In this document: piece by piece, positions 1,300 through 61,827 of the stretch
Position numbering within the stretch: position 1 is the stretch's first letter
How the letters are laid out: every line of letters starts with the position of its first letter
Source: a virus
Strand: one strand, 5' to 3'
Virus record (IMG/VR): IMGVR_UViG_3300050034_000334
Length of the DNA: 64,000 bases
Notes under the pieces: generated by a model
What the model was told of the DNA's origin: nothing
The model's input: only the letters and a program-made list of their open reading frames with translations
Databases searched by the model: none
Made by a program: the position numbers and the translations under genes

Positions 1300-2421
1300 A
1301 TGGGGAAAGCAAAAGTAACACCGAAGTACCAGCAGTATCTTGGAATCGTCCGAGATCACTCCGGCTCGATGAGTCATCTTGCTCACGCGGCGGCCAAGGA
1401 TTACAACACCATCATCGAGGCTCTGAAAGGCGCGGCAGAGTCCAACGGCGTGAACTCGAATGTATGCGTCGTTCGCTGTGGAGTGGGTCATAGCGGCACC
1501 TTCAACTTCGAGAACCTGAACACTCCTCTCAAGGAAATCCAGCCGGTGGTCAACTACCAGACCGATGGCGGATGGACTCCTCTGTTCGATAGCGTGAACT
1601 CTGCCATCGACCAGGTCTCAATGAATGCTGACTCCGACTCCATGCCTGACGCCTCCTTCCTCGTCATGGCAATCACTGACGGAGTGGACAACAAGTCCGC
1701 GATGACGGCCTCTGGTCTGGCGAATCGCATTCAGTCCTTGCAGACCACCGACAAGTGGACCTTCGTGTTCCGTGTTCCTATGGGATCCAAGAGGAGACTG
1801 GTCAATCTGGGTATCCCTGAGGGCAACATCCTCGAGTGGGTTCAGACTGTTCAGGGCCTCGAAGAGTCATCGGTCAAGACTGTGGCTGCTGTGTGGACCT
1901 ACATGGATGAGCAGAGCAGGGGCATCACATCCACTCGCAGCTTCTATGCAAACCTGGACGACGTGAAGCCGGCAGAGGTTCGCAAGGAGATGACCAACAT
2001 CACTGCGAAGGTCAAGTTCTTCAAGGTCGGCAAGCCCAAGCTCGTTATCGGAGTTTCCACCGGCTCCTATCCGACTTACTCCGTTCGCGACTTCATGGAG
2101 CGCAGGACTCGGAGACCCTATCAGCCTGGTTCGGCCTTCTACCAGTTGACCAAGAGCGAGATTGTTCAGGAGTACAAGCAGATCGCCATTCGGAACAAGA
2201 AGTCCTTGGCTGTCTACGTTGGCTCTGAGGCTCGTGAGTTGCTGGGCATCCCCACGGTAGGCAGCATCCGGTTGAAGCCTGGAAAGACGAAGGAGTTCAC
2301 CATCTTCATCCAGTCAACCTCCTACAATCGGGTGCTCGTTACTGGGACGGAAGCCATGTACTACAAGGGTGCGACCTATCAACCCCGGTTGCGCTTCAAG
2401 AAAGCTGTCGCCGCCGCATGA
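1300..2421 (+). CDS. von Willebrand factor A (vWA) domain protein
   Basis: MIDAS-type motifs IVRDHSGSM, TPLFDS and MAITDGVDN; GAGG RBS. Confidence 0.85.
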   Translation: MGKAKVTPKYQQYLGIVRDHSGSMSHLAHAAAKDYNTIIEALKGAAESNGVNSNVCVVRCGVGHSGTFNFENLNTPLKEIQPVVNYQTDGGWTPLFDSVNSAIDQVSMNADSDSMPDASFLVMAITDGVDNKSAMTASGLANRIQSLQTTDKWTFVFRVPMGSKRRLVNLGIPEGNILEWVQTVQGLEESSVKTVAAVWTYMDEQSRGITSTRSFYANLDDVKPAEVRKEMTNITAKVKFFKVGKPKLVIGVSTGSYPTYSVRDFMERRTRRPYQPGSAFYQLTKSEIVQEYKQIAIRNKKSLAVYVGSEARELLGIPTVGSIRLKPGKTKEFTIFIQSTSYNRVLVTGTEAMYYKGATYQPRLRFKKAVAAA

Positions 2422-2756
2422 TCACAAAAGTCAGCATGATCAGGGAGTACAAGAAGGTCGTCCGGGAGTGCAAGGCTGAACTCAAGAATTGCTCTCCTGA
2501 CGACTTGGGCATACCGGCCATCCAGGGGAACATGGCGGCGGCTGAACATTGGATCAAGTTCCTCTCTGACCCGGATGTACCTGAACAGGGCGATCCGGAA
2601 TTCGATGCAAAGATGGCGAAGCTGAAAGTCAGGGATGCTGCTCGAGCCAGAGAGTCCAAACTCGTCAAGAGGGCGGCGGCCAAGGCGGCTGCAAAAGCTG
2701 CCAAGGCGGCTGCAAAAGCTGCCAAGGCCAAGAAGAAGTCAGTCACAGTGGGATAA
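2418..2756 (+). CDS. hypothetical protein with Ala/Lys-rich histone-H1-like tail
   Basis: ATGA overlap with upstream gene; C-terminus AAAKAAAKAAKAAAKAAKAKKK. Confidence 0.75.
   Translation: MITKVSMIREYKKVVRECKAELKNCSPDDLGIPAIQGNMAAAEHWIKFLSDPDVPEQGDPEFDAKMAKLKVRDAARARESKLVKRAAAKAAAKAAKAAAKAAKAKKKSVTVG
2679..2728 (+). repeat. 21-bp tandem coding repeat (about 2.4 copies)
   Basis: GCCAAGGCGGCTGCAAAAGCT twice, followed by GCCAAGGC. Confidence 0.9.
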
Positions 2757-2975
2757 CGAATCCTTCACGGATTTCAGTTCTCCCATCAGGACTTGTTCAC
2801 GCTGTGTGAGTAGAGTGCGATTGAGTTCTGCTGCTCGGATCTTCTCTTCTTCCAGAACACGAATGGGCTGGCCTTCCACGGTCAGCCCTGAAAGATGAGC
2901 AAGTGCCTTACAGATAAGATTGAGGTCTTTGCTGGTGAATTCCAGGGAGTACTGTGCTAGTGCTGAGATCTTCAT
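2739..2975 (-). CDS. hypothetical protein
   Basis: 78-aa ORF with GAGGA RBS before ATG. Confidence 0.65.
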   Translation of the reverse strand: MKISALAQYSLEFTSKDLNLICKALAHLSGLTVEGQPIRVLEEEKIRAAELNRTLLTQREQVLMGELKSVKDSLSHCD

Positions 2976-3276
2976 TTTTGTATCCTCTACCTTCTAGGGT
3001 GTGAGAACAGCGATCCGTTACGCCATCAGCAAAAATAATTCTTCTCAGACCCTTTATTTTTCCCAGTAACCGAGTAACAATCAGAGTGGCACCAAGAGGT
3101 ACACGAGTGGATTGAGGTTGGTCATACAGAAATGTGGACTGACTACGCTTGTGCTTGTGGTGCTCGTCATGAGTGCGATCATCTAGGATGCAACGATCCT
3201 GAAAATTGTCCGATCAGGATTATTACTCAAAACGAGAAGAAAGTAGTATACTGTTGAAGTGGAAATCGGTAACATT

Positions 3277-3300
3277 CGACTGAGACTGAGATTGAGATTG
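3277..3300 (+). promoter_or_regulatory. tandem hexamer array abutting the RBS (putative translational operator)
   Basis: CGACTG AGACTG AGATTG AGATTG directly before AAAGGA and the ATG at 3315; TATACT -10-like box at 3247-3252. Confidence 0.6.
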
Positions 3301-3314
3301 AAAGGAAAAGCAAC

Positions 3315-4100
3315 ATGCCAAAGCTCCACGAACTGCTGGCTGTCCAGGGAAACTTGAGCGGACAGTCTACCAAGCTGAGAACTGATCTGTCGGTGCTCTT
3401 CAAGAGCAAGAAGCACCACTTCACGGAGACCACGAAGATCTTCATCTCCAGTGAAGAGGGAACTGCGAAGGAACCAGTTCTCGAAGATCAGCAGAACATT
3501 CAGACCACGGTTCTCAAGGAGATCACGTGGATTTGCCCACATCTGGCCAAGTCTCTCGATGTGGCGTTCCAAGTCGACATGGCCAACACCAAGGCGGCTG
3601 CTGACGTCATTCCCGAGGAAGGCGAAGAGCCTCTTCTGCGTAACATTCCAGCGACCACTCTCCTGCAGTTGGAGAAGAGGGTTGTGGAGTGGAAGGCCAT
3701 GATCGCAGACATCCCCACCCTGGACCCTGCGAAGGGTTTCGAGGTTGATCCGAACCACCGGGAAGCCAAGCAGGGCAAGGGCATCTACAAGGCTCGCGAA
3801 GTCAAGAAGCCTCGTACGCGCAAGGTCAAGGAAATCATCACGCTGTCGCCGGCAACGGACAAGTTCGCGGCCAACGTCCAGGTGTATGATGCTGACAAGA
3901 CCATCGGCCAGACTCAGGAAACTGAGTGGAGTTCCATGATCACCCCGGCTCTCAAGGCGGATTTGCTGGATCGAGTGGAGACGCTGTTTCGTGCCGTGAC
4001 CAAGGCTCGCGCCAAGGCCAACGAGTACTCCCTTGAGTCCAAGGAAAAGATTGGTTCCACGCTGTTGGAGTACGTTTTCCAGCCGCTGCTTGGAGCCTAA
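3315..4100 (+). CDS. uncharacterised helical/coiled-coil protein (resembles the family I recall as DUF7873), candidate partner of the downstream ncRNA
   Basis: KLHELLAV..., NTKAAADV, IPATTLLQLEK, IPTLDPA, RTRKV, WSSMI, LLDRVETL..AV.KAR.KAN pattern; family name is from memory and needs an HMM check. Confidence 0.8.
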   Translation: MPKLHELLAVQGNLSGQSTKLRTDLSVLFKSKKHHFTETTKIFISSEEGTAKEPVLEDQQNIQTTVLKEITWICPHLAKSLDVAFQVDMANTKAAADVIPEEGEEPLLRNIPATTLLQLEKRVVEWKAMIADIPTLDPAKGFEVDPNHREAKQGKGIYKAREVKKPRTRKVKEIITLSPATDKFAANVQVYDADKTIGQTQETEWSSMITPALKADLLDRVETLFRAVTKARAKANEYSLESKEKIGSTLLEYVFQPLLGA

Positions 4101-4421
4101 CGAGTTGGGTGGACCCGAGAGGGTCAATCCAGGCTAAGACTAACACTCAGGTGTTTTGGCCTCCCCTCAAAGGGAGTAACCCCAAGACACCTGATCAGAC
4201 TAAGGCTCAATCCGGCTTCGGAAACCGGACTTAGGCTTTCACCCAAAGGCTCATCGCGGAGGTAACGATAGTCAATCTAGCAGAACCGACTCTTCAGAGG
4301 TCGCTGGTTCGAATCCGGTAGGAGGCCCCACAAAAATTCATGCCTCCTTAGCTCAGCGGTAGAGCATCTGACTAAGACTTATGGTTCTGAGATGAAAGAC
4401 GAGACGTTTTCCGCACCCAAC
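4101..4421 (+). ncRNA. ~320-nt structured ncRNA containing a circularly permuted tRNA-like domain (YrlA-like topology)
   Basis: Terminal stem GTTGGGTG(4104-4111)/CACCCAAC(4414-4421); hairpins GACCC-GAGA-GGGTC, TCAGGTGTTTTGG/CCAAGACACCTGA, TCCGG/CCGGA and CAGAACC/GGTTCTG; embedded tRNA halves at 4294-4330 and 4342-4373. Confidence 0.85.
4294..4373 (+). other. permuted tRNA-like element (3' half, CCA, 11-nt linker, 5' half)
   Basis: TCAGA GGTC GCTGG-TTCGAAT-CCGGT AGGAGGC C CCA, then CAAAAATTCAT, then GCCTCCT TA GCTC-AGCGGTA-GAGC A TCTGA CT; acceptor, D, T and anticodon stems all pair, with no closed anticodon loop. Confidence 0.9.
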
Positions 4422-4449
4422 ATTATCGACTCGATATCGATGATACTTG

Positions 4450-4477
4450 GCGCCAGTCGCGTGGTAGCGGCTGGCGC
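4450..4477 (+). terminator. GC-rich hairpin closing the ncRNA locus (terminator or processing stem)
   Basis: GCGCCAGTCGC-GTGGTA-GCGGCTGGCGC 11-bp stem; no U tract. Confidence 0.5.
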
Positions 4478-4498
4478 GTCAGTGTAAGGAGACAGATT

Positions 4499-4690
4499 AT
4501 GCTAGGTCCAGCGTTCTACCTTCACGTCAAACACGCCACCAACGACACCTGGGTGCAAGTTGGCCCGAACCCCACTCATTGGGGTTTCTTCCACTTCAAG
4601 GAATCGGTAGAGAGCATGGAAAAGCTCTTCAAGTCTCTCGGTCTTGAAACCAGGATTGAAGAGTTCCAGACAGACTACGACGACAGATGA
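4499..4690 (+). CDS. hypothetical protein
   Basis: 63-aa ORF with AAGGAG RBS. Confidence 0.7.
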   Translation: MLGPAFYLHVKHATNDTWVQVGPNPTHWGFFHFKESVESMEKLFKSLGLETRIEEFQTDYDDR

Positions 4691-4861
4691 TCACTTGAAG
4701 CGATCTCTCTGAAGACGAATCAGTCGGGTAATCAGCAAGTCCAGTCTATCCATAATTGGAGTTGGAACATTGTCTCTATGTGGTAGATCTTGGACTTCTT
4801 CGTGAAGAACGTCGAAATCGTGTAACAATACCTTTGCTTCTTCTTGATCCTCTACTCTCAT
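4691..4861 (-). CDS. small hypothetical protein (not in ORF track)
   Basis: Manual translation MRVEDQEEAKVLLHDFD...RLQRDRFK (56 aa) fills the gap exactly. Confidence 0.55.
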   Translation of the reverse strand: MRVEDQEEAKVLLHDFDVLHEEVQDLPHRDNVPTPIMDRLDLLITRLIRLQRDRFK

Positions 4862-4876
4862 GATGTCACCCGTTCC

Positions 4877-5365
4877 CTAGAAGGAATATGGGAGATGAAA
4901 GGTGTCTATGAGTCCTGGTGTTCCTGACGCCACTCTTTCCAGAATCTCTTCAGCACCAGGTTCGTATAGACTCCATCCCATTGTGTTTGATTCATGGTCA
5001 GCGATCGTGTTTGCTGCTCGATTTGGGGAGTACTCCATGAGCAACTTGTTAGGAACTTTCAAGTTCAGCAGTTGGAAAAGTCGAGGAGAAACCGGATACG
5101 GAATTGGAAGACTGTCTGATTTACGAATCATTGCCATAATTCTTTTTGCACATCTTGAGACCAGTTTCTTGTAGACAACACGATCCACCTGATCGAAGGG
5201 CAGCTGATAGAATCTCCCGTCGTACATATTGTGTTTCACGTATTGGACAAACCCATCCTCGTCAAACTCATCAATTATCCTGGCGAGTTCTGGACTCCAA
5301 TCCGCCAGAGTACCTGAGTGTTCGATCTTGGACTTCTTCAGCAAAATGCTGTGGAAATTACTCAC
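4877..5365 (-). CDS. hypothetical protein with FxSxLL-type leader
   Basis: Likely GTG start at 5365 overlapping the upstream gene end, preceded by GGAGG; begins MSNFHSILLKKS. Confidence 0.65.
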   Translation of the reverse strand: MSNFHSILLKKSKIEHSGTLADWSPELARIIDEFDEDGFVQYVKHNMYDGRFYQLPFDQVDRVVYKKLVSRCAKRIMAMIRKSDSLPIPYPVSPRLFQLLNLKVPNKLLMEYSPNRAANTIADHESNTMGWSLYEPGAEEILERVASGTPGLIDTFHLPYSF

Positions 5366-5651
5366 TGGCTGCCTCCAGCTTGCTCTTGTTTGCATAGGCA
5401 TCCAGCCAAGCATTCATCACATCGTCAAGTGTATATCCTTTTTTGATCTCACATTTGGTGAGAGTAGGAGTTGTCCCGACAAAATTGCATTTGCAGGTGG
5501 CAATCTGCTCTCCAGTTGGCTTGTACAGAGTCAGGCTGCTGGGTAGAGTAGGCTGTACCACGGGAGCCTTCTGAACGAAGACTGGCTTGACCACCGGCTG
5601 GCTGGCGTGGATTGGGATGCTCAGTATAAGCGCAAGCAAGAAATGCTGCAT
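5358..5651 (-). CDS. secreted or periplasmic hypothetical protein
   Basis: Signal-peptide-like MQHFLLALILSIPIHA; AAGGAGG RBS. Confidence 0.7.
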   Translation of the reverse strand: MQHFLLALILSIPIHASQPVVKPVFVQKAPVVQPTLPSSLTLYKPTGEQIATCKCNFVGTTPTLTKCEIKKGYTLDDVMNAWLDAYANKSKLEAASE

Positions 5652-6532
5652 AGGGCGGCCTCCTTATGGGCTGATTTCTCCTTCATTTGTTCACTCTTCT
5701 TCCTTCTAGCTTCTGCATTCCACTGCTTGATCGCTATTTCCTTCTGTTTTAGTCTCATCTCAGGAGTGTAACTAAGCAAGTTACCTCTAGTCCAGCCTCT
5801 AGAGAGATAACTATCCAATTCTTCTTTTAGAATTTTCTTCAATTTTCCTTCCCTATTGACAAGTACACCAGTGCCTCTGAGAGAAGTACCACGTTTCCAG
5901 CCTTCCTGTAAGTATGAGTTCAAACTGGTCTGAGGGATTCTCTCCGTTAGGCTTCCTCTAGTGACTAACACCGTGCTCTTCATCTTCTCATGGATAACCT
6001 GAAGAGCACCCTTGGCAGCTTTGCTACTCTTGATGATTTTGCTTTGTCGTACTCTGACCTCTGGATCAGCAAAGTATCGCTTGATCCTGTCACTTTGGAC
6101 CTTTCTCTTTTCCGGATCTTGAAAATACTCGGTATTCTTACGTCTAAGAGTAGAGAGAGCTTGTTCAGTGTGATGATATCCTGAAATTCCTTCTCCTCCC
6201 TTTGTTAGATTGTACCCAAATCTAGAGTCAAATGTCTTTAGAGTAGCAATGAAGTGAACTTCCATTTCATTTAGTTCGGAAATAGGTCCTGAACCCAGTA
6301 TGGCAACTTCAAAGTTTTCTCTTCCGTGTTTCTTCACTGCATTTCGAAAGTACACCGTACAGAAACCTAGTTTCTTCAAGCACAAACCATGCCTTTCAGC
6401 CAAGGTTCTTTCTGTCTTCCCCACGTAGATTTTACCACTTTGGATATGTCTAAAACCGTACACGACGTTACTGATATTCCAGATTTCACTGGTACTGAGA
6501 ACAGGTATCCAGACAGGGTCATTGATGATCAT
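5621..6532 (-). CDS. GIY-YIG homing endonuclease (Seg-like)
   Basis: VVYGF...IYVGKT..TLAERH, NEMEVHFI, GYNLTKGGEG and NUMOD3-like tail; AT-rich; start inferred at MIIND after AGAAAGG. Confidence 0.85.
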   Translation of the reverse strand: MIINDPVWIPVLSTSEIWNISNVVYGFRHIQSGKIYVGKTERTLAERHGLCLKKLGFCTVYFRNAVKKHGRENFEVAILGSGPISELNEMEVHFIATLKTFDSRFGYNLTKGGEGISGYHHTEQALSTLRRKNTEYFQDPEKRKVQSDRIKRYFADPEVRVRQSKIIKSSKAAKGALQVIHEKMKSTVLVTRGSLTERIPQTSLNSYLQEGWKRGTSLRGTGVLVNREGKLKKILKEELDSYLSRGWTRGNLLSYTPEMRLKQKEIAIKQWNAEARRKKSEQMKEKSAHKEAALCSISCLRLY

Positions 6533-6595
6533 TGTGAATGCCTTTCTACTTATGAATCCGGTAGTCGAAAGACCAAACATTGGAAGACGAAAGTC

Positions 6596-8845
6596 CTATT
6601 CTGTTTCCACAACGACAATAGCTGGGAATTCTTTGATTCCCATAAGCAGAAGGGCATCAAATCTGTGGCCGCCTTCAAGAATGTAGTAGTCCTCAAGGTT
6701 ACTCAGATTGTCTATCACTACAATGAGAGGATTAATCTCCATAGACTCTATAATTTCACTCTTGAGTCTTTTCGTATACCGATCTTCACTGCTTGAATGT
6801 GGAACATACTCGTACTCCTTCTCGGATTTCATTTTCACAACACGAACACCTGGAAGTTCAGTCCAATCCTCATCGTTGTTATAGCCAGCTGAAATGGACT
6901 CAAGATTAGGAATCGTTCCTCTGACCTTCAGACTACCACAGGTGTCTCCCAGCATCTTCGGATAGAGCTTGTCGAGTTCTGACAGGGTCTCGTCATCGTC
7001 ATCAACAGCTGCAGTCTTCGAGATGCAAGGGATCCTCCAACCCATGAGGTTCAAGTTGTCCACCTTGAATCCGAGCCTCTTCACCATCGCCACATAGAGA
7101 GGAGTTTTGTCCGGGTTGTGACTCGCGATCACCAACTCGCCATACTTCTGCAGCCAGTGATTGAGGACCCTCTTGACTTCTGCCAACGATCCCTTGCCCC
7201 TCGAATTCGGAGTCTTGGTCAGCTGCTGCATGGGATCAAAAGCATCCATGCCGATCCGCTGCAGTCCGACCTGGTAGATGTTGGGAATCATCCCACTCTT
7301 GACCACCATGAGTTCGTACTCTCCAATGGTGGCCTCTTCCACGATCTTGTCTCCCGAGAGAGCCATGTAACGCTGTCCTGTTTCAGAGACGGCCACGGCC
7401 TCCTTGTGAGAACCTCCCATGTTGAATTCGTAGTAGGATCCCTGGCCATTGTAGGAGTCAGGAACCTCCGTCCCTCCGAGTTTCTTCACCATGGCCTGAG
7501 AGGCATAGTTGTCATTTTCGATGTAGGTCTTGGCGTGCTTGTATCCCATCTCAGCAATCTTGCCGAGAGCACTCTTCATGAGTTCGGGACCAAATCCTCT
7601 GTAGCGAATGTCGCTGTCAAGTCTGTTGAGATAGGCTTCACCATCTGCTCCAAGATCCACTGTGAAGTTTACCACAACCTTGTCAGTGAAGTTGACCTTG
7701 GTCAGCCAGTCATGTGCTTCCGGCTTCAGAGTACCCTCGAAGAAGAGACGCTGTGGAGATCCTGTGACCTGGACCTTGAGCCGGGGAGTCTCATAGTCCT
7801 CGACAATTTTGGTGCTGGCGACCTTTGCAGGCTCAATCTCCTTGAGCTTCTTTTCAATCCCATATTCATTGCTGAAGTACTCTACGGCAGCCTTCTCATC
7901 GAAGTCAGCGAATCCGTAGTTTGGTTCCTTCATGACTATTCGATGATCAAGATCTCCATCTCCTCCATCCATTCTTGAATTCTGACCTGTGTCATTGATC
8001 AGATCAGCAGCTTCGGAAAGAGCAAGATTCTGAGCCTTCTCGTTCAGTGTCTTTTTATCAGTGTCTTTCTCTTTCCCAAAATACGTGTAAGCCTTGTTAG
8101 AACCCATCTGTATCAGCTCCAGCTTGGCCCAACGCAAAAACCATACGATGCGATAGTTCTTATGAAGATTGTTCTTGGCCCAGTTGATCTCATCCTGGAT
8201 GTCCTGATGAAGAGAGATGGCAACACCGGACTTACCATCCACAGGAGGTAGAGCATTCTGAATTATGCTATTCAGGCCGGCAAACATCTCGTCATAGTTG
8301 GCCTCAGCTTCGATCTGAAAGCTGGCTTGCTTCTCAGGCGGAGGAGTCGTGTGCAGTAGATGATCCGCAGGCAACTCACAGGCTTTGCATTCTGGACTAC
8401 CCTCTTGAGGAACGAACTTGTGACGACCGTAAGGCCACCACTCTCTGTGGGCGGCGGCTGTCTTAGGATCCTCATCCATGTTATCTTCCGCGACGTCAAG
8501 GAACTCCTCGACCGGAACCTCATGGATGGCCTGTACCCGCGTCTCCCTCCAACCTGGATCAAATTGGGCGAGATAGACCGCTTCAGCTTCAGGCAAGGAT
8601 TCGAAGCCCAACATCACCTTGTACTCATCGAAGGAACCATCCTCCTTGAGTTGCTCCACCACATAAGCGTGCGGGGAGTGGTGATCATCTCCGACATACA
8701 CGTCCACGGCCTCTCCATCGCCTCTCCCGGTTGTATCGGGGATGAAGCCATAGTCGGCTTGCAGGATGCGATTGTGCCGGCGCTCGCCCTTCCACTTTTC
8801 AACCGTTACGGGAAGCCCTCTAAAGAGGTAATCGTGATCGTCCAT
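6596..8845 (-). CDS. polyvalent modular protein: InPase (inorganic pyrophosphatase-like), Zn module, GNAT, ParB-like
   Basis: ADYGFI..T.G.DGEAVDVYVG/FDEYKVMLGF; YRGFGPELMK...NYASQAMVKKLG; NPLIVV...ILEGGHRFDALLLMG. Confidence 0.8.
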   Translation of the reverse strand: MDDHDYLFRGLPVTVEKWKGERRHNRILQADYGFIPDTTGRGDGEAVDVYVGDDHHSPHAYVVEQLKEDGSFDEYKVMLGFESLPEAEAVYLAQFDPGWRETRVQAIHEVPVEEFLDVAEDNMDEDPKTAAAHREWWPYGRHKFVPQEGSPECKACELPADHLLHTTPPPEKQASFQIEAEANYDEMFAGLNSIIQNALPPVDGKSGVAISLHQDIQDEINWAKNNLHKNYRIVWFLRWAKLELIQMGSNKAYTYFGKEKDTDKKTLNEKAQNLALSEAADLINDTGQNSRMDGGDGDLDHRIVMKEPNYGFADFDEKAAVEYFSNEYGIEKKLKEIEPAKVASTKIVEDYETPRLKVQVTGSPQRLFFEGTLKPEAHDWLTKVNFTDKVVVNFTVDLGADGEAYLNRLDSDIRYRGFGPELMKSALGKIAEMGYKHAKTYIENDNYASQAMVKKLGGTEVPDSYNGQGSYYEFNMGGSHKEAVAVSETGQRYMALSGDKIVEEATIGEYELMVVKSGMIPNIYQVGLQRIGMDAFDPMQQLTKTPNSRGKGSLAEVKRVLNHWLQKYGELVIASHNPDKTPLYVAMVKRLGFKVDNLNLMGWRIPCISKTAAVDDDDETLSELDKLYPKMLGDTCGSLKVRGTIPNLESISAGYNNDEDWTELPGVRVVKMKSEKEYEYVPHSSSEDRYTKRLKSEIIESMEINPLIVVIDNLSNLEDYYILEGGHRFDALLLMGIKEFPAIVVVETE

Positions 8846-9576
8846 TAGGCGGCCTCCAATGAAGACTGGTACTTAACAATCCGATGAACCCATTCCATGA
8901 ATTCTTCTACTGGGCTGTTCATTTTTGCTCTGTTGCATCGTCCACAACAGGACACTACATTTCCTTCTTGATAGGGCAACGAGTTATTAACCCTATCTAT
9001 TCCGTTTCTCGTAAACGAAAACTTGTCAGTCTTGTAGCGAGCTTGGGTATCTCCTCCCGGAGAATAACTGTAGACTTGACGAGGTTCCACTCCGCAGTAG
9101 TAACACTTTCCCTCAGCTAGTTCTCTGGTCCTCTCCTCAGAAAGACCCCAGTCAAGACCTCTATCCTTGGCGTTGCCTTGTAGAGTTTTGAATAGCATGT
9201 GAAAAGCAGCTTCATGAGGAGGTAGTCTGTTCTGGTACTCCTCCAGTAAGCATCCACAACTTCGAGTATTCCCATTTCGTAGACGGTGGGCCAGAACTCT
9301 GACTTCTTTCCCACAGTCACACTCGCAGCGCCAAATGGCACCGCCGCCAACTTTGTCTGATCCAGTTCCAATCCTCTCAAGTGCGGTCAACTTTCCAAAC
9401 TTCATACCGATCATGTCCTTGTGACGGAAGTAGGGTTTGGAAGGCTTTCTGGTGAGAATTATGCGACGGTTAGTACATCTTCGACAAGTTATCTTCGCCT
9501 TTTCCGCAAATTCATACGCTGCCTTTGTCTTGTAACTGATCTCAGATGAGCACTCCGGACAACTTCTAGTGAACAT
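8845..9576 (-). CDS. HNH homing endonuclease
   Basis: WRCECDCG...TRSCGC zinc domain; CYYCG...NGIDRVNN...Y..GNVVSCCGRCNRAK. Confidence 0.9.
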   Translation of the reverse strand: MFTRSCPECSSEISYKTKAAYEFAEKAKITCRRCTNRRIILTRKPSKPYFRHKDMIGMKFGKLTALERIGTGSDKVGGGAIWRCECDCGKEVRVLAHRLRNGNTRSCGCLLEEYQNRLPPHEAAFHMLFKTLQGNAKDRGLDWGLSEERTRELAEGKCYYCGVEPRQVYSYSPGGDTQARYKTDKFSFTRNGIDRVNNSLPYQEGNVVSCCGRCNRAKMNSPVEEFMEWVHRIVKYQSSLEAA

Positions 9577-47758: not shown

Positions 47759-49077
47759 TAAATCTCCAATGAGAAGTGAGAGCCAACTTCAATCTCGTAT
47801 CCTTTGGGCTGGATGATGTCAATGTCTCCCAGCTTGGCAGTCGACGAGAGGTCGTATTCATTAAGCATCTGATGACCATCTTTCGGTGCACCAGAAGCAA
47901 TCTTGTGGTTGGAAGAAGCCGTGCTCATCCCAGGGAAGCTCAGCAAAGTCCCGCCAGTGAGACCGCAGTGCATGCTGCTGCGATAAGCACAAGAGGAACA
48001 CTTGGGTGCTCCAACGATGGCGTTCTGGACTCCCAATTTCCCCTTGAGGAAACGGCAGTCAATCTGGGAGAGAGCGATCTTGGTTCCTGCAGTCTTCAAT
48101 CCACCCACGAACTTCTTCACGACATCAGCCGCCCGGACTACGCCAGCGGTCTTGACACCGAATGAATAAATCTTCTCGAGGGATGCTCCAGCAGTGTGAG
48201 CCTTGGAAATTGCAGCAACGGTGAATTCCGGAGAGGTGGTCTTGATGGTAGAAGCTGTCTTGGCCGCCGTGGTTCTCTGGGTGACCTTGTCATCCACTCG
48301 GACGATAGGAGCCTTGTCAGCGGTCTTCTGCTCGGCGCCATCACGGATCTTGGCAAGGTGTTCGGCTGCAGTAAACTGCTTCTTTTCCATGAACTTGTTG
48401 GGTTCCCAATAGTCCATGCCGTTCACATCTTCTGTTCCGCCGGCATCCAGATACTCGTGGGCAGAATTCCAGTTGAAGATGACATTTTCAGCCAGCTTCT
48501 TCTTGAGATAGTTGCTGATCTTCTCCTTGGAGTGACCGGCAGCTATGGCCTTGCGAATGCCCGCCCGGATGCTCTCATCAGAGATACGCTTGCCCTTGGT
48601 TTCGACTGTGGTGCCCTTGGCTTTCTCAAGTGAGATTGAGACATCCGCCAGCGCATTGTCATCCGAAGTGACCGCCGCCGCGCGATTCTTCCAGTCGTTG
48701 GGGACGGAAGAAACTCGAACGGTATCAAACGGATCTCCAAGAGGATCTCTGTCGTCGATTGGTTGCGAAACTTGCGCAGTCAAACCCTCTTCAGAGCAAC
48801 CATTGTTATAGCAGCGAAGTACACCCAGTTGGTCCTTCTGCAATGGTTTACTGCATGCCGGGCAATTCTGGTCGTACCCAGAGGCAAAGTGAACACCACC
48901 GTGGACTTCTCCTCGGTCACCTTCAATGGAACGTGTGAATGCCTTGTCAACCTCGTCATGAGTCAGGTTCAAGAGTTCCTGACCAGAAGCTCTGGCTGCA
49001 TTGAGTCCCACATCCTCATAGTCCGATGGTCCGTCAAGGAACGCGTCGATGATACTCGAATACAGTTTTTCTGCCAT
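47758..49077 (-). CDS. modular protein with KTA motifs and Cys clusters (probable virion protein)
   Basis: GGAGG RBS; CPAC..C...C; KTAD, KTAS, KTAG, KIAS; CSSC...HCGL. Confidence 0.75.
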   Translation of the reverse strand: MAEKLYSSIIDAFLDGPSDYEDVGLNAARASGQELLNLTHDEVDKAFTRSIEGDRGEVHGGVHFASGYDQNCPACSKPLQKDQLGVLRCYNNGCSEEGLTAQVSQPIDDRDPLGDPFDTVRVSSVPNDWKNRAAAVTSDDNALADVSISLEKAKGTTVETKGKRISDESIRAGIRKAIAAGHSKEKISNYLKKKLAENVIFNWNSAHEYLDAGGTEDVNGMDYWEPNKFMEKKQFTAAEHLAKIRDGAEQKTADKAPIVRVDDKVTQRTTAAKTASTIKTTSPEFTVAAISKAHTAGASLEKIYSFGVKTAGVVRAADVVKKFVGGLKTAGTKIALSQIDCRFLKGKLGVQNAIVGAPKCSSCAYRSSMHCGLTGGTLLSFPGMSTASSNHKIASGAPKDGHQMLNEYDLSSTAKLGDIDIIQPKGYEIEVGSHFSLEI

Positions 49078-49868
49078 TACAACCCTCCTTGGTATAGGCC
49101 GGACTTGGACCTATTTCTTTCAGCAATTCGAATTGCCTGAGCAGCGCGACGTTCGGGAGTCCATGCCGATACCATTTTCTTGCAAAATTCGGAAGAACGC
49201 TTCTGACCTAGGTTTGAAAGACGACTTTTTAGACGCTCTTCTTGTGAAACTACCCTTCCCTTGGAGGATTCTCTGTGCTTTCGACGAGTTTCATCAGTTA
49301 CACCTGCTCTAATGGCTGAAGAAGAGTTTTCTCTGTAGTCTGGATCTCTCCATAAACTTTCCATTCTTACAGCAAGTAAATCGTAATTGACAGAAGGAGT
49401 TTTTCCCTTCCTCTGAGCACAAAATAGAGCTCTTGTGAAATTTGAATGAGTCCTGCCGGTACTACTGACCCTGTGTTTCTCTCGTGTATCCTCAGAAACG
49501 AACCTTCCTGTCATTGCTACACGCAGCTTCTGCTTTGTGGATTCTGAGGAAGTTCTCCCACGCATAGGAGCACCTGCTTGAAGAGCGATGTTGTACCCAC
49601 TATGAACAGCATCGAAAGCATCAATGGCTAGCTGTTCTTTCTCCAGAAGTTGCTCTGTAGGACAGTAAATAATCACGTCGAATTCAAAAACGGATTCTCC
49701 ATACTTATTGAAGGCATTCTGAAGTTTGGGGTTGTAATGCTTGTTTGTTTTCAACTCTCCGAAGTGTTCCTGGCATCTCTTTGATAAATCGGCACTGCTT
49801 CCTATGTACACTTTTTGGTTCAAAGTGTTTAGTATCCTGTAAACCCCGCAATTTGACCAATCATTCAT
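49077..49868 (-). CDS. GIY-YIG homing endonuclease with NUMOD3-like repeats
   Basis: GVYRILN.LNQKVYIGSS.DL.KR..EH; H.N.KLQNAFNKYG; SESTKQKL/SEDTREK repeats. Confidence 0.9.
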   Translation of the reverse strand: MNDWSNCGVYRILNTLNQKVYIGSSADLSKRCQEHFGELKTNKHYNPKLQNAFNKYGESVFEFDVIIYCPTEQLLEKEQLAIDAFDAVHSGYNIALQAGAPMRGRTSSESTKQKLRVAMTGRFVSEDTREKHRVSSTGRTHSNFTRALFCAQRKGKTPSVNYDLLAVRMESLWRDPDYRENSSSAIRAGVTDETRRKHRESSKGRVVSQEERLKSRLSNLGQKRSSEFCKKMVSAWTPERRAAQAIRIAERNRSKSGLYQGGL

Positions 49869-59094: not shown

Positions 59095-59585
59095 AGGTAC
59101 ACTCCAATCGGTTGCAACGTGCCATCAACATCAGCGTAGACGAAAGGCCCAAATTCAGTAATTTCCAGATACGACAGTACCTTTGGTACTCCACAAACTA
59201 CAGCAAAACCGTAAAGTCTCGATTCAATGGAATCAAGCACCTCAATCAGTTGTGGTACACTACTAATCATTGCGTAAATGAAAGTTCCAGAATTATCAAC
59301 CGCCAGGTAAGGAGAAACTGTAAATGGCGGGTTTGGCATGTGGTGAATCACCTGTACAACATTGTCCGTAGTTAGCGAGATTCCCAAGTACAGCTGGTAA
59401 GTTGTCGTGGCAGCGTCATACAAGAAAGATTTCACCTGAATTTGAATACCATCCACCCAAACCTCAACATCAGTCATGGGATTGAAATTCACCGTTAGGG
59501 CATCCACAGTTCGACTGAATGGTCCTCCTATCGAAGAGATCAGGTTGACCACGTTCCCAAGGAACTCTGTGCTAACCTGTGACAT
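59091..59585 (-). CDS. hypothetical structural protein
   Basis: beta-rich; VEVWVDG; translationally coupled. Confidence 0.7.
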   Translation of the reverse strand: MSQVSTEFLGNVVNLISSIGGPFSRTVDALTVNFNPMTDVEVWVDGIQIQVKSFLYDAATTTYQLYLGISLTTDNVVQVIHHMPNPPFTVSPYLAVDNSGTFIYAMISSVPQLIEVLDSIESRLYGFAVVCGVPKVLSYLEITEFGPFVYADVDGTLQPIGVYL

Positions 59586-61827
59586 CTTCGGTCTCCTCTT
59601 TCTCTTCGTCTAATGAAGACACCCTGAAATTCTGGTTCCTGTTGCGATTCTTCTTCCAGTTGTTGAACTTGTCATCCCGCATCTTCTTCAACCTCTTGCG
59701 ATCGCCTTCTGCTTGTTCTTCGAGCTTGCGCTTTTCCTCCACAAGCATTTGGTCGATGAGGTCGTGATTCTGTGAATGGCTTTCCTCTTCGTCTTTAACA
59801 TGCACTTCCTCTTTTCGAGGTTGTTGCAACTTTTCTTTCTGTTCCGCCGGGGTGGGCTGTGCTTCAACTGCAGCAGGAGCAGTGCGCTCAATTTCACGCT
59901 CGGTCTGTTCGTCAAGCTCAGCTTCTTCCTGCAGAAGACGATCACGCTCCTTGCGCTGCATCTCCTCAAGATCTTCTTTCTCCTTGGGAGTTCTGCGCTT
60001 CTTCTTGAGCAGCTGACGCTGGCGCATAGCCTCCTGCTCACGATCAAGACGAGTAGGAGCTTTGGTAGGAGTCTGCTTGTATTCCTCAACCACCTTCTCA
60101 CGAACCAGGTTCTGAATATTGTGCTGAACAGCCGGAAGGATGCGTTCACACACGGCCTTAATGTGTTTACAAATCAGAGCATTCGTTCTTAAATCGAGCC
60201 TTTCTTTGGGAGCTTGAAGTTTTGGTCTGGGTTCTCCTTCTAAAGCATCACGTTCATGAAGGTTCCACTGATTTCCCCAGTACAGGAACGCCGGGCAATT
60301 ATGTACCACCACTCCGTTAGCAATGAACGATTCGTCTTCTTCTACTGTCAAATCAAAAAATGATGGAGGACAGGATACCTGCTTCGCATAATTAAGGCAA
60401 CGAAGAAATCCTTCTCTCCATTCCAAATCTCTAGATTCAGAAAACACTTTTCCCAGAGATTTTTCAACTCGTTCTTTATCTCTTTCACGTAGCCATTTGA
60501 ACATTCGAAGAACTAGAGCAGGGTACTGTCTGTAGCTAATTCGCAGTCTAGTGTTAGTAAAACTTTGCCAAACTCCTTGGCTAAAGAGGAAAAAAGAGAT
60601 TTGTTGAAGAAGATTTCTAGAGTAAGAAACAATATCTTGAGTGTCGTACTCGATGTTTCCATCCCCTAGAGCATGACTAGAGATCAAATTCCACATTGCT
60701 TCCACATCCCAAGCGAGTATTTCCTCTGATAGTCTCTTGGTTAGACTACCTTGCCCACACAATTCATACATCTGCTTAGCGAACTGGGAATCTTTCACTC
60801 TGACATTTATCCAACTATACTCAGAGTTGTCCTCAATCTCGATTCGAGCATTAGGACCAAGGTAGCGACGTGCTCGTTCTGCTGTATCCTTGACTACAGT
60901 GTCTTTTTCGTTACGATTGTAGGTAAATGTTACTTCGTAGGCAGAGTACTGCTCTCCGTCAACCACCACCTGAGCTGCTTTAACTTTCTTGGTAGACCTT
61001 CTTTTATGTAAATGCAAGCAACCTTCAGCGAGGTAGTATCCTGTCAAAGCAGCAAGATCTGGATCAACTACCTTAGTTCCTGTCCACGCGAACTTAGGGA
61101 AGTACAGTGTCTCTCGGTCAACTATTTCCAAGGGAGTTTTCCAAAAAGAAGAAATCTCTGGTTTAACCAACAGTCTAGTATTTCCTAGAGTGTTATGTCC
61201 GGATAAGAAATTTCTACCAAGTCTCTTTTTAACAACAGAAGAATACTTTCCTGAAGTGGGCCATAGGGGTGCTCCACATCCACAAGCACAATTTTCTCTT
61301 CCTCTGACTACAGCAATAGGATGATCTTCAGACAAAATAAGCGGAGTCTGGTACCCTTTGGCTTTAACCTCCCAAGCCTGTTCTCCTTCTCTAGGTTTTC
61401 TTTCCGACACCGCTGTGACTTTCTTAGCTCTTCCCTTGTGAGTGATGACATGATCACCTACAGATACTTCATCTATTCTCTTCTCTGTTCCATCAGCCAT
61501 CCTAATCATGCTGTCTAGAGCTACACAGCTGCAGTTCACTTTGATATCCAGATCATTGGCTCTCATTTCCGGAGTAACCTTAGACACGTCAAAGTGAACT
61601 TTCACATCATGACCGTTAGGATCGCTAGTTTCAAGATTACATTTGACATTATAACGAAGGAAAAGGTCTTTGGGATCAGAAGCCTCAAGATGGGGAACGC
61701 AACCTGGTCTATTTTTCACAGAAAAACTGTTTGTTTGGGACACTAATTCCGGCAAAGATATAGCCAGCTTCACCTTCTTGGTAAGGTAATCCGACAATTT
61801 GAAAGAAGACCAGATTTCGCTCATCAT
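59572..61827 (-). CDS. SWIM zinc-finger protein interrupted by an intein
   Basis: Spliced extein reads VNCS-CPAFLYWG...ICKH (SWIM CxC...CxH); charged coiled-coil C-terminus. Confidence 0.85.
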   Translation of the reverse strand: MMSEIWSSFKLSDYLTKKVKLAISLPELVSQTNSFSVKNRPGCVPHLEASDPKDLFLRYNVKCNLETSDPNGHDVKVHFDVSKVTPEMRANDLDIKVNCSCVALDSMIRMADGTEKRIDEVSVGDHVITHKGRAKKVTAVSERKPREGEQAWEVKAKGYQTPLILSEDHPIAVVRGRENCACGCGAPLWPTSGKYSSVVKKRLGRNFLSGHNTLGNTRLLVKPEISSFWKTPLEIVDRETLYFPKFAWTGTKVVDPDLAALTGYYLAEGCLHLHKRRSTKKVKAAQVVVDGEQYSAYEVTFTYNRNEKDTVVKDTAERARRYLGPNARIEIEDNSEYSWINVRVKDSQFAKQMYELCGQGSLTKRLSEEILAWDVEAMWNLISSHALGDGNIEYDTQDIVSYSRNLLQQISFFLFSQGVWQSFTNTRLRISYRQYPALVLRMFKWLRERDKERVEKSLGKVFSESRDLEWREGFLRCLNYAKQVSCPPSFFDLTVEEDESFIANGVVVHNCPAFLYWGNQWNLHERDALEGEPRPKLQAPKERLDLRTNALICKHIKAVCERILPAVQHNIQNLVREKVVEEYKQTPTKAPTRLDREQEAMRQRQLLKKKRRTPKEKEDLEEMQRKERDRLLQEEAELDEQTEREIERTAPAAVEAQPTPAEQKEKLQQPRKEEVHVKDEEESHSQNHDLIDQMLVEEKRKLEEQAEGDRKRLKKMRDDKFNNWKKNRNRNQNFRVSSLDEEKEETEDVTG
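60298..61527 (-). mobile_element. intein (410 aa) with LAGLIDADG endonuclease
   Basis: Block A CVALDSMIRMADG, block B SEDHP, LTGYYLAEG and HALGDG, block F/G FDLTVEEDESFIANGVVVHN followed by Cys. Confidence 0.95.

Follow-up and report, generated by a model that had tools for sequence, protein, structure and literature searches.

Which kind of RNA carries the 3′ half of a transfer RNA (tRNA), CCA included, ahead of the 5′ half, and which protein does it work with? The question is raised by a 64,000-nucleotide (nt) stretch of DNA from the IMG/VR virus record IMGVR_UViG_3300050034_000334, analysed here at its full length and called the window. Within it, a non-coding RNA of ~320 nt (4101–4420, the 3′ limit being approximate) starts 1 nt past the stop codon of a gene for a 261-residue DUF7873 protein (3315–4100; Pfam PF25283, E = 7.4e-57), both on the plus strand, as are all parts of the RNA described below. 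The RNA is recognised by the minimum free energy of its fold, by an architecture common to its relatives and by RNA contigs in six metatranscriptome runs. The source record comprises 143,574 bases at a CheckV completeness of 46%, and its gene content (family A DNA polymerase, primase zinc finger, NUDIX, inteins and homing endonucleases) is that of a large tailed phage. The answer that we favour, with a probability of roughly 0.55, is that this permuted tRNA-mimic RNA, probably opened in its phage form at the acceptor loop by RNase P, would be the RNA half of a DUF7873 ribonucleoprotein (RNP) and not a partner of Ro60.

The permuted cloverleaf occupies 4294–4371 and runs in the order T arm, 7-bp acceptor, C-CCA, 11-nt linker and D arm. 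Its 3′ half consists of one strand of an anticodon-like stem (TCAGA, 4294–4298), a 4-nt variable region, the T arm GCTGG-TTCGAAT-CCGGT with a canonical UUCGAAU loop (4303–4319), the acceptor 3′ strand AGGAGGC (4320–4326) and a discriminator C (4327) followed by an encoded CCA (4328–4330). Past an A/U-rich linker (4331–4341), the 5′ half follows with the acceptor 5′ strand GCCTCCT (4342–4348), U8-A9, a full D arm, GCTC-AGCGGTA-GAGC, that includes A14, G18 and G19 (4351–4365), and the other strand of the anticodon-like stem (TCTGA, 4367–4371). This stem is never closed by an anticodon loop; beyond it come an internal loop of 6/11 nt and an outer stem of 7 bp (CAGAACC, 4281–4287, with GGTTCTG, 4383–4389). 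Direct inspection of the sequence bears out every element that an earlier model-made annotation of these letters, the original prediction, had named between 4281 and 4389, including the complete D stem, the unclosed anticodon stem continuing into the CAGAACC/GGTTCTG helix and the lack of a G3:U70 determinant, position 3:70 being C:G. The fold of the 321-nt region has a minimum free energy of −112.7 kcal/mol (z = −3.57), which none of 100 shuffled sequences equalled, and relatives show compensatory changes in its stems; the permuted arrangement is therefore far beyond chance.

Those compensatory changes were found in two sets of relatives. The first, unbiased with respect to pairing, holds 36 sequences chosen by their T-loop and D-arm letters only (L008, L050, L061 and L070 were dropped from the 39 found); RNAalifold returned the permuted cloverleaf from it with 20 pairs, 15 of them with compensatory changes, and at most 1/36 of the acceptor cells was broken. 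In the second set, of 56 sequences, 94.6% of cells pair, compared to 60.1% after shuffling and at most 46% with slid partners, a percentage that is partly built in by the parser for the acceptor, T and D stems, whereas the variety of pair types is not; both sides change in 20/21 pairs. Stem by stem, both-side changes affect all seven acceptor pairs, all five pairs of the anticodon-like stem (77.5% paired) and all six aligned pairs of the outer stem (84.7% paired, in a 12-sequence alignment), and the T and D stems also covary (the D stem is, for example, GAGC/GCUC in locus L039). U8, A14, G18, G19 and the T loop are invariant in the 56 sequences, and the tRNA elbow should therefore form.

The tRNA-like head is one part of a larger structure. 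Twelve full-length relatives have in common a closing helix P1, a GNRA hairpin P2, a repeat-rich stretch, the outer stem, the head and a 3′ tail with a conserved GCAC motif (4390–4420). P1 closes the 5′ domain by pairing 4105–4111 with CACCCAA at 4240–4246; 86.7% of its cells are paired across the 12 sequences, and its strands change together among relatives (UUCGGGA/UCCCGAA, CUCGGG/CCCGAG, UUAGGGU/ACCCUAA). P2 (4112–4125) has a GAGA loop, which is GAAA, GCAA or GAGA among relatives, with 95% pairing and both-side changes in three of five pairs. The original prediction had also paired the two ends of the RNA, 4104–4111 with 4414–4421; the 8-nt complement is indeed present, but relatives do not keep it and pair 4105–4111 with 4240–4246 instead, and we rejected this helix as a conserved element. 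A further hairpin, P3 (4248–4273, stem AUCG/CGAU), is kept only in the seven closest sequences, where its stem is invariant. Its loop GCGG may pair with CCGC at 4411–4414, a tentative pseudoknot with 95% pairing and one covarying pair that 142/500 shuffles equalled. Among the 12 aligned sequences, a hairpin insertion at 4145–4195 (alignment A5, columns 56–100) occurs in the window RNA only. The insertion holds GGCCUCC, a second copy of the acceptor 5′-strand letters, which could pair with 4321–4327.

The 5′ domain, of 180 nt, and the internal loop are marked by a hexamer, RRYUHA, which occurs 224 times in 64 distinct 155-nt 5′ regions, compared to 73.9 ± 8.1 times in mononucleotide shuffles and 47 times in coding controls, with a spacing of 6 nt by far the commonest. 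In the window RNA, copies start at 4132, 4138, 4198, 4204, 4228, 4248, 4370 and 4376, forming the tandems GGCUAA GACUAA (4132–4143) and GACUAA GGCUCA (4198–4209), two single copies and, in the internal loop beside the tRNA-like head, GACUAA GACUUA (4370–4381). Letters following the anticodon-like stem that might be taken for a leucine anticodon (U-NAG or U-YAA) are copies of this repeat and sit in no closed loop, and we rejected them as an anticodon.

The evidence that ties this RNA to DUF7873 is its genomic position in other phages. For the DUF7873 protein, 561 homologues were detected. A search of viral contigs with the single protein returned nothing, as did blastn of window positions 3000–5000 against phage records, whereas a search with an alignment of 33 homologues (A1) succeeded: of 397 candidate stretches in the viral collection, 313 contain a gene for a DUF7873 relative. 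Among the best 80 loci of that search, a strict parser (T loop, at least 4/5 T-stem, 7/7 acceptor and 4/4 D-stem pairs) found a permuted head past the gene in 69. A covariance model, R1, was built from the 56 sequences, namely the window and 55 of the 58 distinct copies with linkers of up to 45 nt, omitting L050 as doubtful and L075 and L081 as near-copies of L073 and L074. It scores 91.7 bits on the window (4279–4393) and matches just downstream of the gene, on the same strand, in 79/80 phage loci; the exception is L052, a locus cut off 107 nt past its gene. Collecting the regions downstream of homologues of 3315–4100 and modelling them had been proposed with the original prediction, and the outcome is an RNA at nearly every locus with strong covariation.

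In 38 whole phage records, the best R1 match (42.6–102 bits, at least 67 in 35) lies within the DUF7873 locus in all except G039, whose locus copy scored 41.9 bits in the locus scan and was not listed in the whole-record scan. A second match above 60 bits occurs only in G017 (G017:C1:42498–42614, 61.7 bits), a permuted tRNA-like match 27 kb from the DUF7873 locus of that record. Weak matches of 17–37 bits are junctions of tandem tRNA genes, one of them in the record of the window itself (C1:118990–119101). The gene and the RNA are 70–400 nt apart in several loci. In relatives (flanks of L003–L048), the DUF7873-RNA unit lies within tRNA gene arrays, with a tRNA often starting ~50 nt past the RNA; the six tRNA genes of the window's own record lie ~93 kb from the unit, at C1:117625–119911.

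The same pair is found in bacterial chromosomes. In a collection limited to one genome per species, a DUF7873 relative was recognised in 500 of 600 candidate stretches, and the total is estimated at ~780 stretches, with carriers including Streptomyces, Nonomuraea, Actinomadura, Nocardia, Sorangium, Planctomycetota, Abditibacterium, Deinococcus, Acidobacteriota and others. Among the best 80 loci of this search, R1 matches 75, in 74 cases downstream on the same strand and in one, L104, upstream; no match was found in L128, L136, L143, L153 and L162, the last of which ends early. Linkage of gene and RNA is thus near-constant in phages and bacteria. The bacterial RNA is often two-headed, and its acceptor loops are mostly short and sealed. 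No conserved neighbours emerged from 68 open reading frames of 22 of the 80 loci, whose flanks are unrelated. The only RNA-related neighbour among the scanned loci is a polynucleotide phosphorylase gene directly upstream of the DUF7873 gene and RNA, on the same strand, in a member of the Haliangiales (L126:355–2478). In Deinococcus, polynucleotide phosphorylase is an effector that a Y RNA tethers to Ro60.

A protein gene beside the gene of its partner RNA is a familiar pattern, as in smpB-ssrA and rsr-yrlA, and it is by gene linkage that we infer binding of the RNA by DUF7873. The AlphaFold model of the protein (predicted local distance difference test score, pLDDT, 81.9; predicted template modelling score, pTM, 0.70) shows long helices packed in a bundle, together with two long beta hairpins. 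Foldseek against the PDB gave no convincing fold relative (best E 0.012, to Cas7 of Cascade and Rogdi, at template modelling scores of 0.12–0.25) and, against BFVD, nothing at E ≤ 0.001; a wide VIA-align search peaked at Z 9.2 with a designed helical protein, within the range for unrelated helical bundles. No match was found in PHROGs, PADLOC, NCBIfam or PDB sequences, and the ESM Atlas matches are DUF7873 clusters only. The weak Cas7 rows, beside a 6-nt RNA repeat, we provisionally treated as coincidence.

For the phage form, the structure predicts a free 3′ end at the encoded CCA, and environmental RNA supports one. Peat, permafrost and wetland are the sources of six metatranscriptome runs in which at least 63% of the words sampled from 3700–4700 occur. 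In three of these runs, from three studies, a contig of high depth stops following the sequence of the window at 4331 and continues into CCA repeats: X15 (3355–4331, depth 379.6) carries CACCACCACCACCAC and then Illumina adapter, and X19 (3455–4331, depth 296.8) and X20 (3695–4331, depth 207.2) each carry 24 letters of the same CCA repeat. With the encoded C-CCA-C included in the count, the X15 contig has six CCA units, and those of X19 and X20 have nine or more each. Neither (CCA)4 nor (TGG)4 was found anywhere in the 143.6-kb record, and two DNA runs, X1 (which may be the source sample) and X6, read through the linker with no repeats. We read the CCA tails as post-transcriptional and as the mark of a genuine 3′ terminus of the RNA at the encoded CCA, in agreement with the end at 4330 that the original prediction had placed there. 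X19 also contains a low-depth contig (16.4) that bridges the linker. Contig depth past the linker is 3–16 compared to 207–380 before it, and parts are uncovered; neither was used as evidence, as contig depth cannot rank the parts of a gene.

In the same data, one T of the T-run at 4404–4407 (window 4407) is missing in all four RNA runs first compared, and 42 nt (4794 to 4837) are skipped in two runs. Strain variation is likely for both, because the X6 DNA contig over 4150–4759 also has one gap.

Sequence around the acceptor ends fits processing by RNase P. NCCA (any nucleotide, then CCA) follows the acceptor strand in 54/62 distinct phage copies, the first eight linker letters are 78% A/U, and U occupies −1 in 35 and G +1 in 41 of the 62. 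Bacterial RNase P prefers U at −1, and the predicted cleavage site lies before G4342. The discriminator of the 54 NCCA copies varies (C 20, U 15, G 13, A 6), as does the 1:72 pair across relatives; with these variable and no anticodon, aminoacylation looks unlikely. No gene for a CCA-adding enzyme (PF01743) was found in the record.

The nearest precedent for such processing is the YrlA RNA of Mycobacterium smegmatis, the known exception to the sealed acceptor loop among YrlA RNAs: its acceptor also measures 7 bp, and the RNA is cleaved in vitro by RNase P RNA and, in vivo, ends in CCA as a two-piece tRNA-like RNA (PMC4201824, 10.1101/312249). The two differ in that the mycobacterial RNA has CA added after nibbling and is bound to Rsr, whereas the CCA of the phage RNA is encoded, its tail reaches six to at least nine units and no Ro60 is at hand. 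Untemplated extra CCA units on a tRNA-like 3′ end also recall the CCACCA tags that the CCA-adding enzyme puts on unstable tRNAs and tRNA-like RNAs, in Escherichia coli too (PMC5824355, whose consulted passages mention no longer tails); the known tags comprise one extra unit and mark RNAs for decay, whereas the phage RNA has five to eight or more extra units and is abundant. The tails on the three contigs thus have the units of a known tag at a far greater length. CCACCA addition proceeds by a refolding mechanism.

Together, these observations suggest the following course of events. The DUF7873 gene and the RNA would be transcribed together; RNase P would cut before G4342, and exonucleases would remove the A/U-rich linker, leaving two RNA pieces held by the acceptor, anticodon-like and outer stems, whose exposed 3′ end the host CCA-adding enzyme would re-extend. 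DUF7873 would bind the RNA, for which the 6-nt repeats in the 5′ domain and internal loop are plausible sites, and the intact tRNA elbow may offer a handle to enzymes that bind tRNA or to factors of RNA decay, a role also suggested for the tRNA-like module of Y RNAs. We further propose, tentatively, that DUF7873 and the split tRNA mimic form a widespread, undescribed RNP in which repeated CCA extension yields a functional poly(CCA) tail, possibly a single-stranded handle or a trap for 3′-end enzymes, and not a decay mark.

Several findings weigh against this course of events. NCCA was seen by eye, using a loose parser, at only ~14/66 bacterial heads, several of which are stray matches away from the gene; as the bacterial copies are mostly sealed and without CCA, cleavage does not extend to every member of the class. 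The RNA evidence comes from assemblies and not from reads, and the contigs reveal no strand, no 5′ end at 4342 and no counts. Three further RNA runs, X5 (depth 461), X17 (151.6) and X18 (219.7), read through the linker, the X18 contig ending at 4399 followed by adapter, which means either that uncut RNA is abundant as well or that these libraries contain DNA. X15, X19 and X20 share one library label and the years 2024–2025, and may belong to one campaign. DUF7873 proteins mostly have an isoelectric point of 5.7–7.0 and are not basic, and no RNA-binding fold or family was recognisable in family and structure searches. Finally, a record that is 46% complete leaves room for a Ro60 gene elsewhere in the phage.

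This last point bears on the alternative that the RNA is an ordinary, Ro60-dependent YrlA, its Ro60 gene lying in the missing half of the phage genome or in the host and DUF7873 being a mere syntenic neighbour. The likeness to YrlA (RF02553), the partner of bacterial and phage Ro60/Rsr, is considerable: both place T arm, acceptor-like stem and D arm, permuted, on a long closing stem (PMC4201824, 10.1101/312249). Both also keep the tertiary letters of tRNA, lack an anticodon loop and are encoded beside the gene of a presumed protein partner. A permissive Rfam scan aligned the window RNA to YrlA at full length (model positions 1–114) with E = 2.1e-6. The score, however, is 37.1 bits against a cut-off of 69, with model positions 13–22 and 91–97, the middle helix, deleted, and relatives score 33–42 bits, also below the cut-off. 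No Rfam family matched the 64-kb window at gathering thresholds, GOLLD, ROOL and other large phage non-coding RNAs included, and at E up to 10 no transfer-messenger RNA (tmRNA), GOLLD or ROOL family appeared in 3900–4700; the tRNA model reached 16 bits against a cut-off of 29. Thus the Rfam comparison proposed with the original prediction yields YrlA below threshold only: the DUF7873-linked RNA is not a YrlA member by the Rfam threshold and clearly follows the same tRNA-mimic plan.

The RNA differs from YrlA in further respects. The Ro60-binding module of YrlA has a conserved GNCGAAN0-1G motif (PMC4201824), and GNCGAA was not found in 4101–4425. A candidate site, ACGAUAG, was rejected, being a strand of hairpin P3 that is kept only in the seven closest relatives. 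YrlA has a sealed acceptor loop and no free CCA end (10.1101/312249), unlike the phage RNA with its encoded NCCA and long A/U linker, and the phage RNA has in addition the 5′ domain with its 6-nt repeats. Its neighbour is DUF7873 and not the Ro60 (TROVE) gene.

The distribution of TROVE genes speaks on both sides. The original prediction had noted none in the window, and we found none in the whole record either. The records of 45 of the 80 phage loci were searched, and seven contain TROVE, in five of them 0.1–6 kb from DUF7873; in L039, TROVE, DUF7873 and the RNA follow one another on one strand, with a gap of 95 nt, as a Ro60-dependent RNA might be arranged. Among the 22 records that are at least 90% complete, however, only two have TROVE. 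Moreover, a second YrlA-like RNA lies in or beside the TROVE loci of four of the seven records and of a near-identical eighth (G007, G027, G028, G024 and G035). These RNAs (L048:5098–5202, L087:2437–2551, L084:7–120, L083:525–589 and L088:2452–2561; 26–42 bits, below the Rfam threshold) have a short sealed acceptor loop, GCAA or similar, and no NCCA, whereas the DUF7873-linked RNA in the same genomes retains NCCA. As the sealed RNA lies near TROVE and the NCCA RNA at DUF7873 in the same genomes, the two types coexist, each by or near its own gene. In bacteria, the RNA follows DUF7873 with or without TROVE, which is present in 21 of the 40 DUF7873-bearing genomes searched, mostly far from the locus, and absent from 19. 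We therefore consider a Ro60-dependent YrlA unlikely, and the distinct class put forward by the original prediction, a large RNA with a permuted, CCA-carrying tRNA domain and YrlA-like topology, holds up as one that travels with DUF7873 and has no Rfam membership. A full-text literature search returned no paper on DUF7873 or on the DUF7873-RNA pair, the phage YrlA supplementary lists of PMC4201824 lying outside its coverage, and the available parts of PMC7824862 and PMC12282133 mention only Ro60-linked RNAs.

The RNA might also act as a decoy or sponge, its tRNA-shaped head and free CCA capturing some host factor directed at the acceptor ends or elbows of tRNAs, for which a defence nuclease or nucleotidyltransferase, RNase P, the CCA-adding enzyme and 3′ exonucleases are conceivable targets. 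The high depth of the RNA contigs, the long CCA tails, indicating repeated action of tRNA 3′-end enzymes, the enrichment of encoded NCCA in phage over bacterial copies and the location of loci within phage tRNA gene arrays would all suit such a role. The same pair is nevertheless chromosomal in many bacteria with unrelated flanks, which fits a purely anti-defence role poorly; the RNA has no anticodon loop, so anticodon nucleases are not addressed, and there is neither a PADLOC match nor a known target. On balance, a decoy seems improbable.

Still less probable is a cis-acting 3′ element of the DUF7873 mRNA, in which the RNase P cut would make a stable, structured, CCA-capped and protective 3′ end. 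The immediate start of the RNA behind the stop codon would fit, as would a scan of 2700–5000 for sigma-70 promoters and terminators that gave 0 and 0 sites, and the contigs that end at the CCA begin within the coding region, at 3355, 3455 and 3695. A contig across two features does not prove one molecule, though, and the ~230 nt of structure, the repeats resembling protein sites and the conservation of D arm, outer stem and tail, all of which lie 3′ of the cut, exceed what an mRNA end needs; several loci also separate gene and RNA by the 70–400 nt given above.

There remain two kinds of split or permuted tRNA gene to which the arrangement invites comparison. Two-piece tmRNA is encoded with its CCA-bearing 3′ tRNA half ahead of the 5′ half and is processed into two pieces held by base pairing; the phage RNA has the same order of halves, but it lacks G3:U70, its D stem is complete, and neither ARAGORN nor the Rfam tmRNA models match it. 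In the permuted tRNA genes of Cyanidioschyzon merolae, the 3′ half also comes first and a linker joins the acceptor ends, and the products mature through a circular intermediate, by eukaryal/archaeal splicing enzymes, to normal tRNAs with anticodon loops, whereas the anticodon side of the phage RNA is never closed. ARAGORN, which looks for a tag frame, reports no tRNA or tmRNA gene in the window, no dedicated tag-frame search having been made. That the product is an aminoacylated, ribosome-acting RNA of either kind is very improbable: the complete acceptor, T and D arms, the encoded CCA with its observed free 3′ end and the frequent U-NAG or U-YAA at the would-be anticodon site speak for it, but these last letters are hexamer copies in an unclosed stem, discriminator and 1:72 pair vary, G3:U70 occurs in only 4/69 relatives, no tmRNA family matched at E up to 10, and no tag reading frame is known for it.

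Elsewhere in the window, a 373-residue protein encoded upstream of the DUF7873 gene (1300–2421, plus strand; phrog_26613, no Pfam family) shows by eye a D-x-S-G-S … T … D pattern resembling a metal ion-dependent adhesion site, as in von Willebrand factor A domains. Its sole homologue in the fetched loci, L031:4131–5105, lies just past a DUF7873 RNA; a comparison with the 373-residue open reading frame of L092 found the two unrelated. An intein-bearing gene and several homing-endonuclease genes (HNH, GIY-YIG) lie at 59572–61827, 5621–6580, 8845–9576 and 49077–49868, all on the minus strand.

To our knowledge, Ro60 has so far been the sole protein partner of tRNA-mimicking Y RNAs, and the DUF7873-RNA pair points to a second, Ro60-independent pairing for RNAs of this kind. 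The pair is common, judging from the viral and bacterial counts given above, and self-contained, in that its flanking genes are not conserved, and it is open to study in culturable genera such as Streptomyces and Deinococcus. The environmental RNA contigs provide direct evidence of a phage form opened at the acceptor loop, and their CCA tails, far longer than the known CCACCA tag, offer a natural substrate on which the limits of the CCA-adding enzyme and the function of such tails may be studied.

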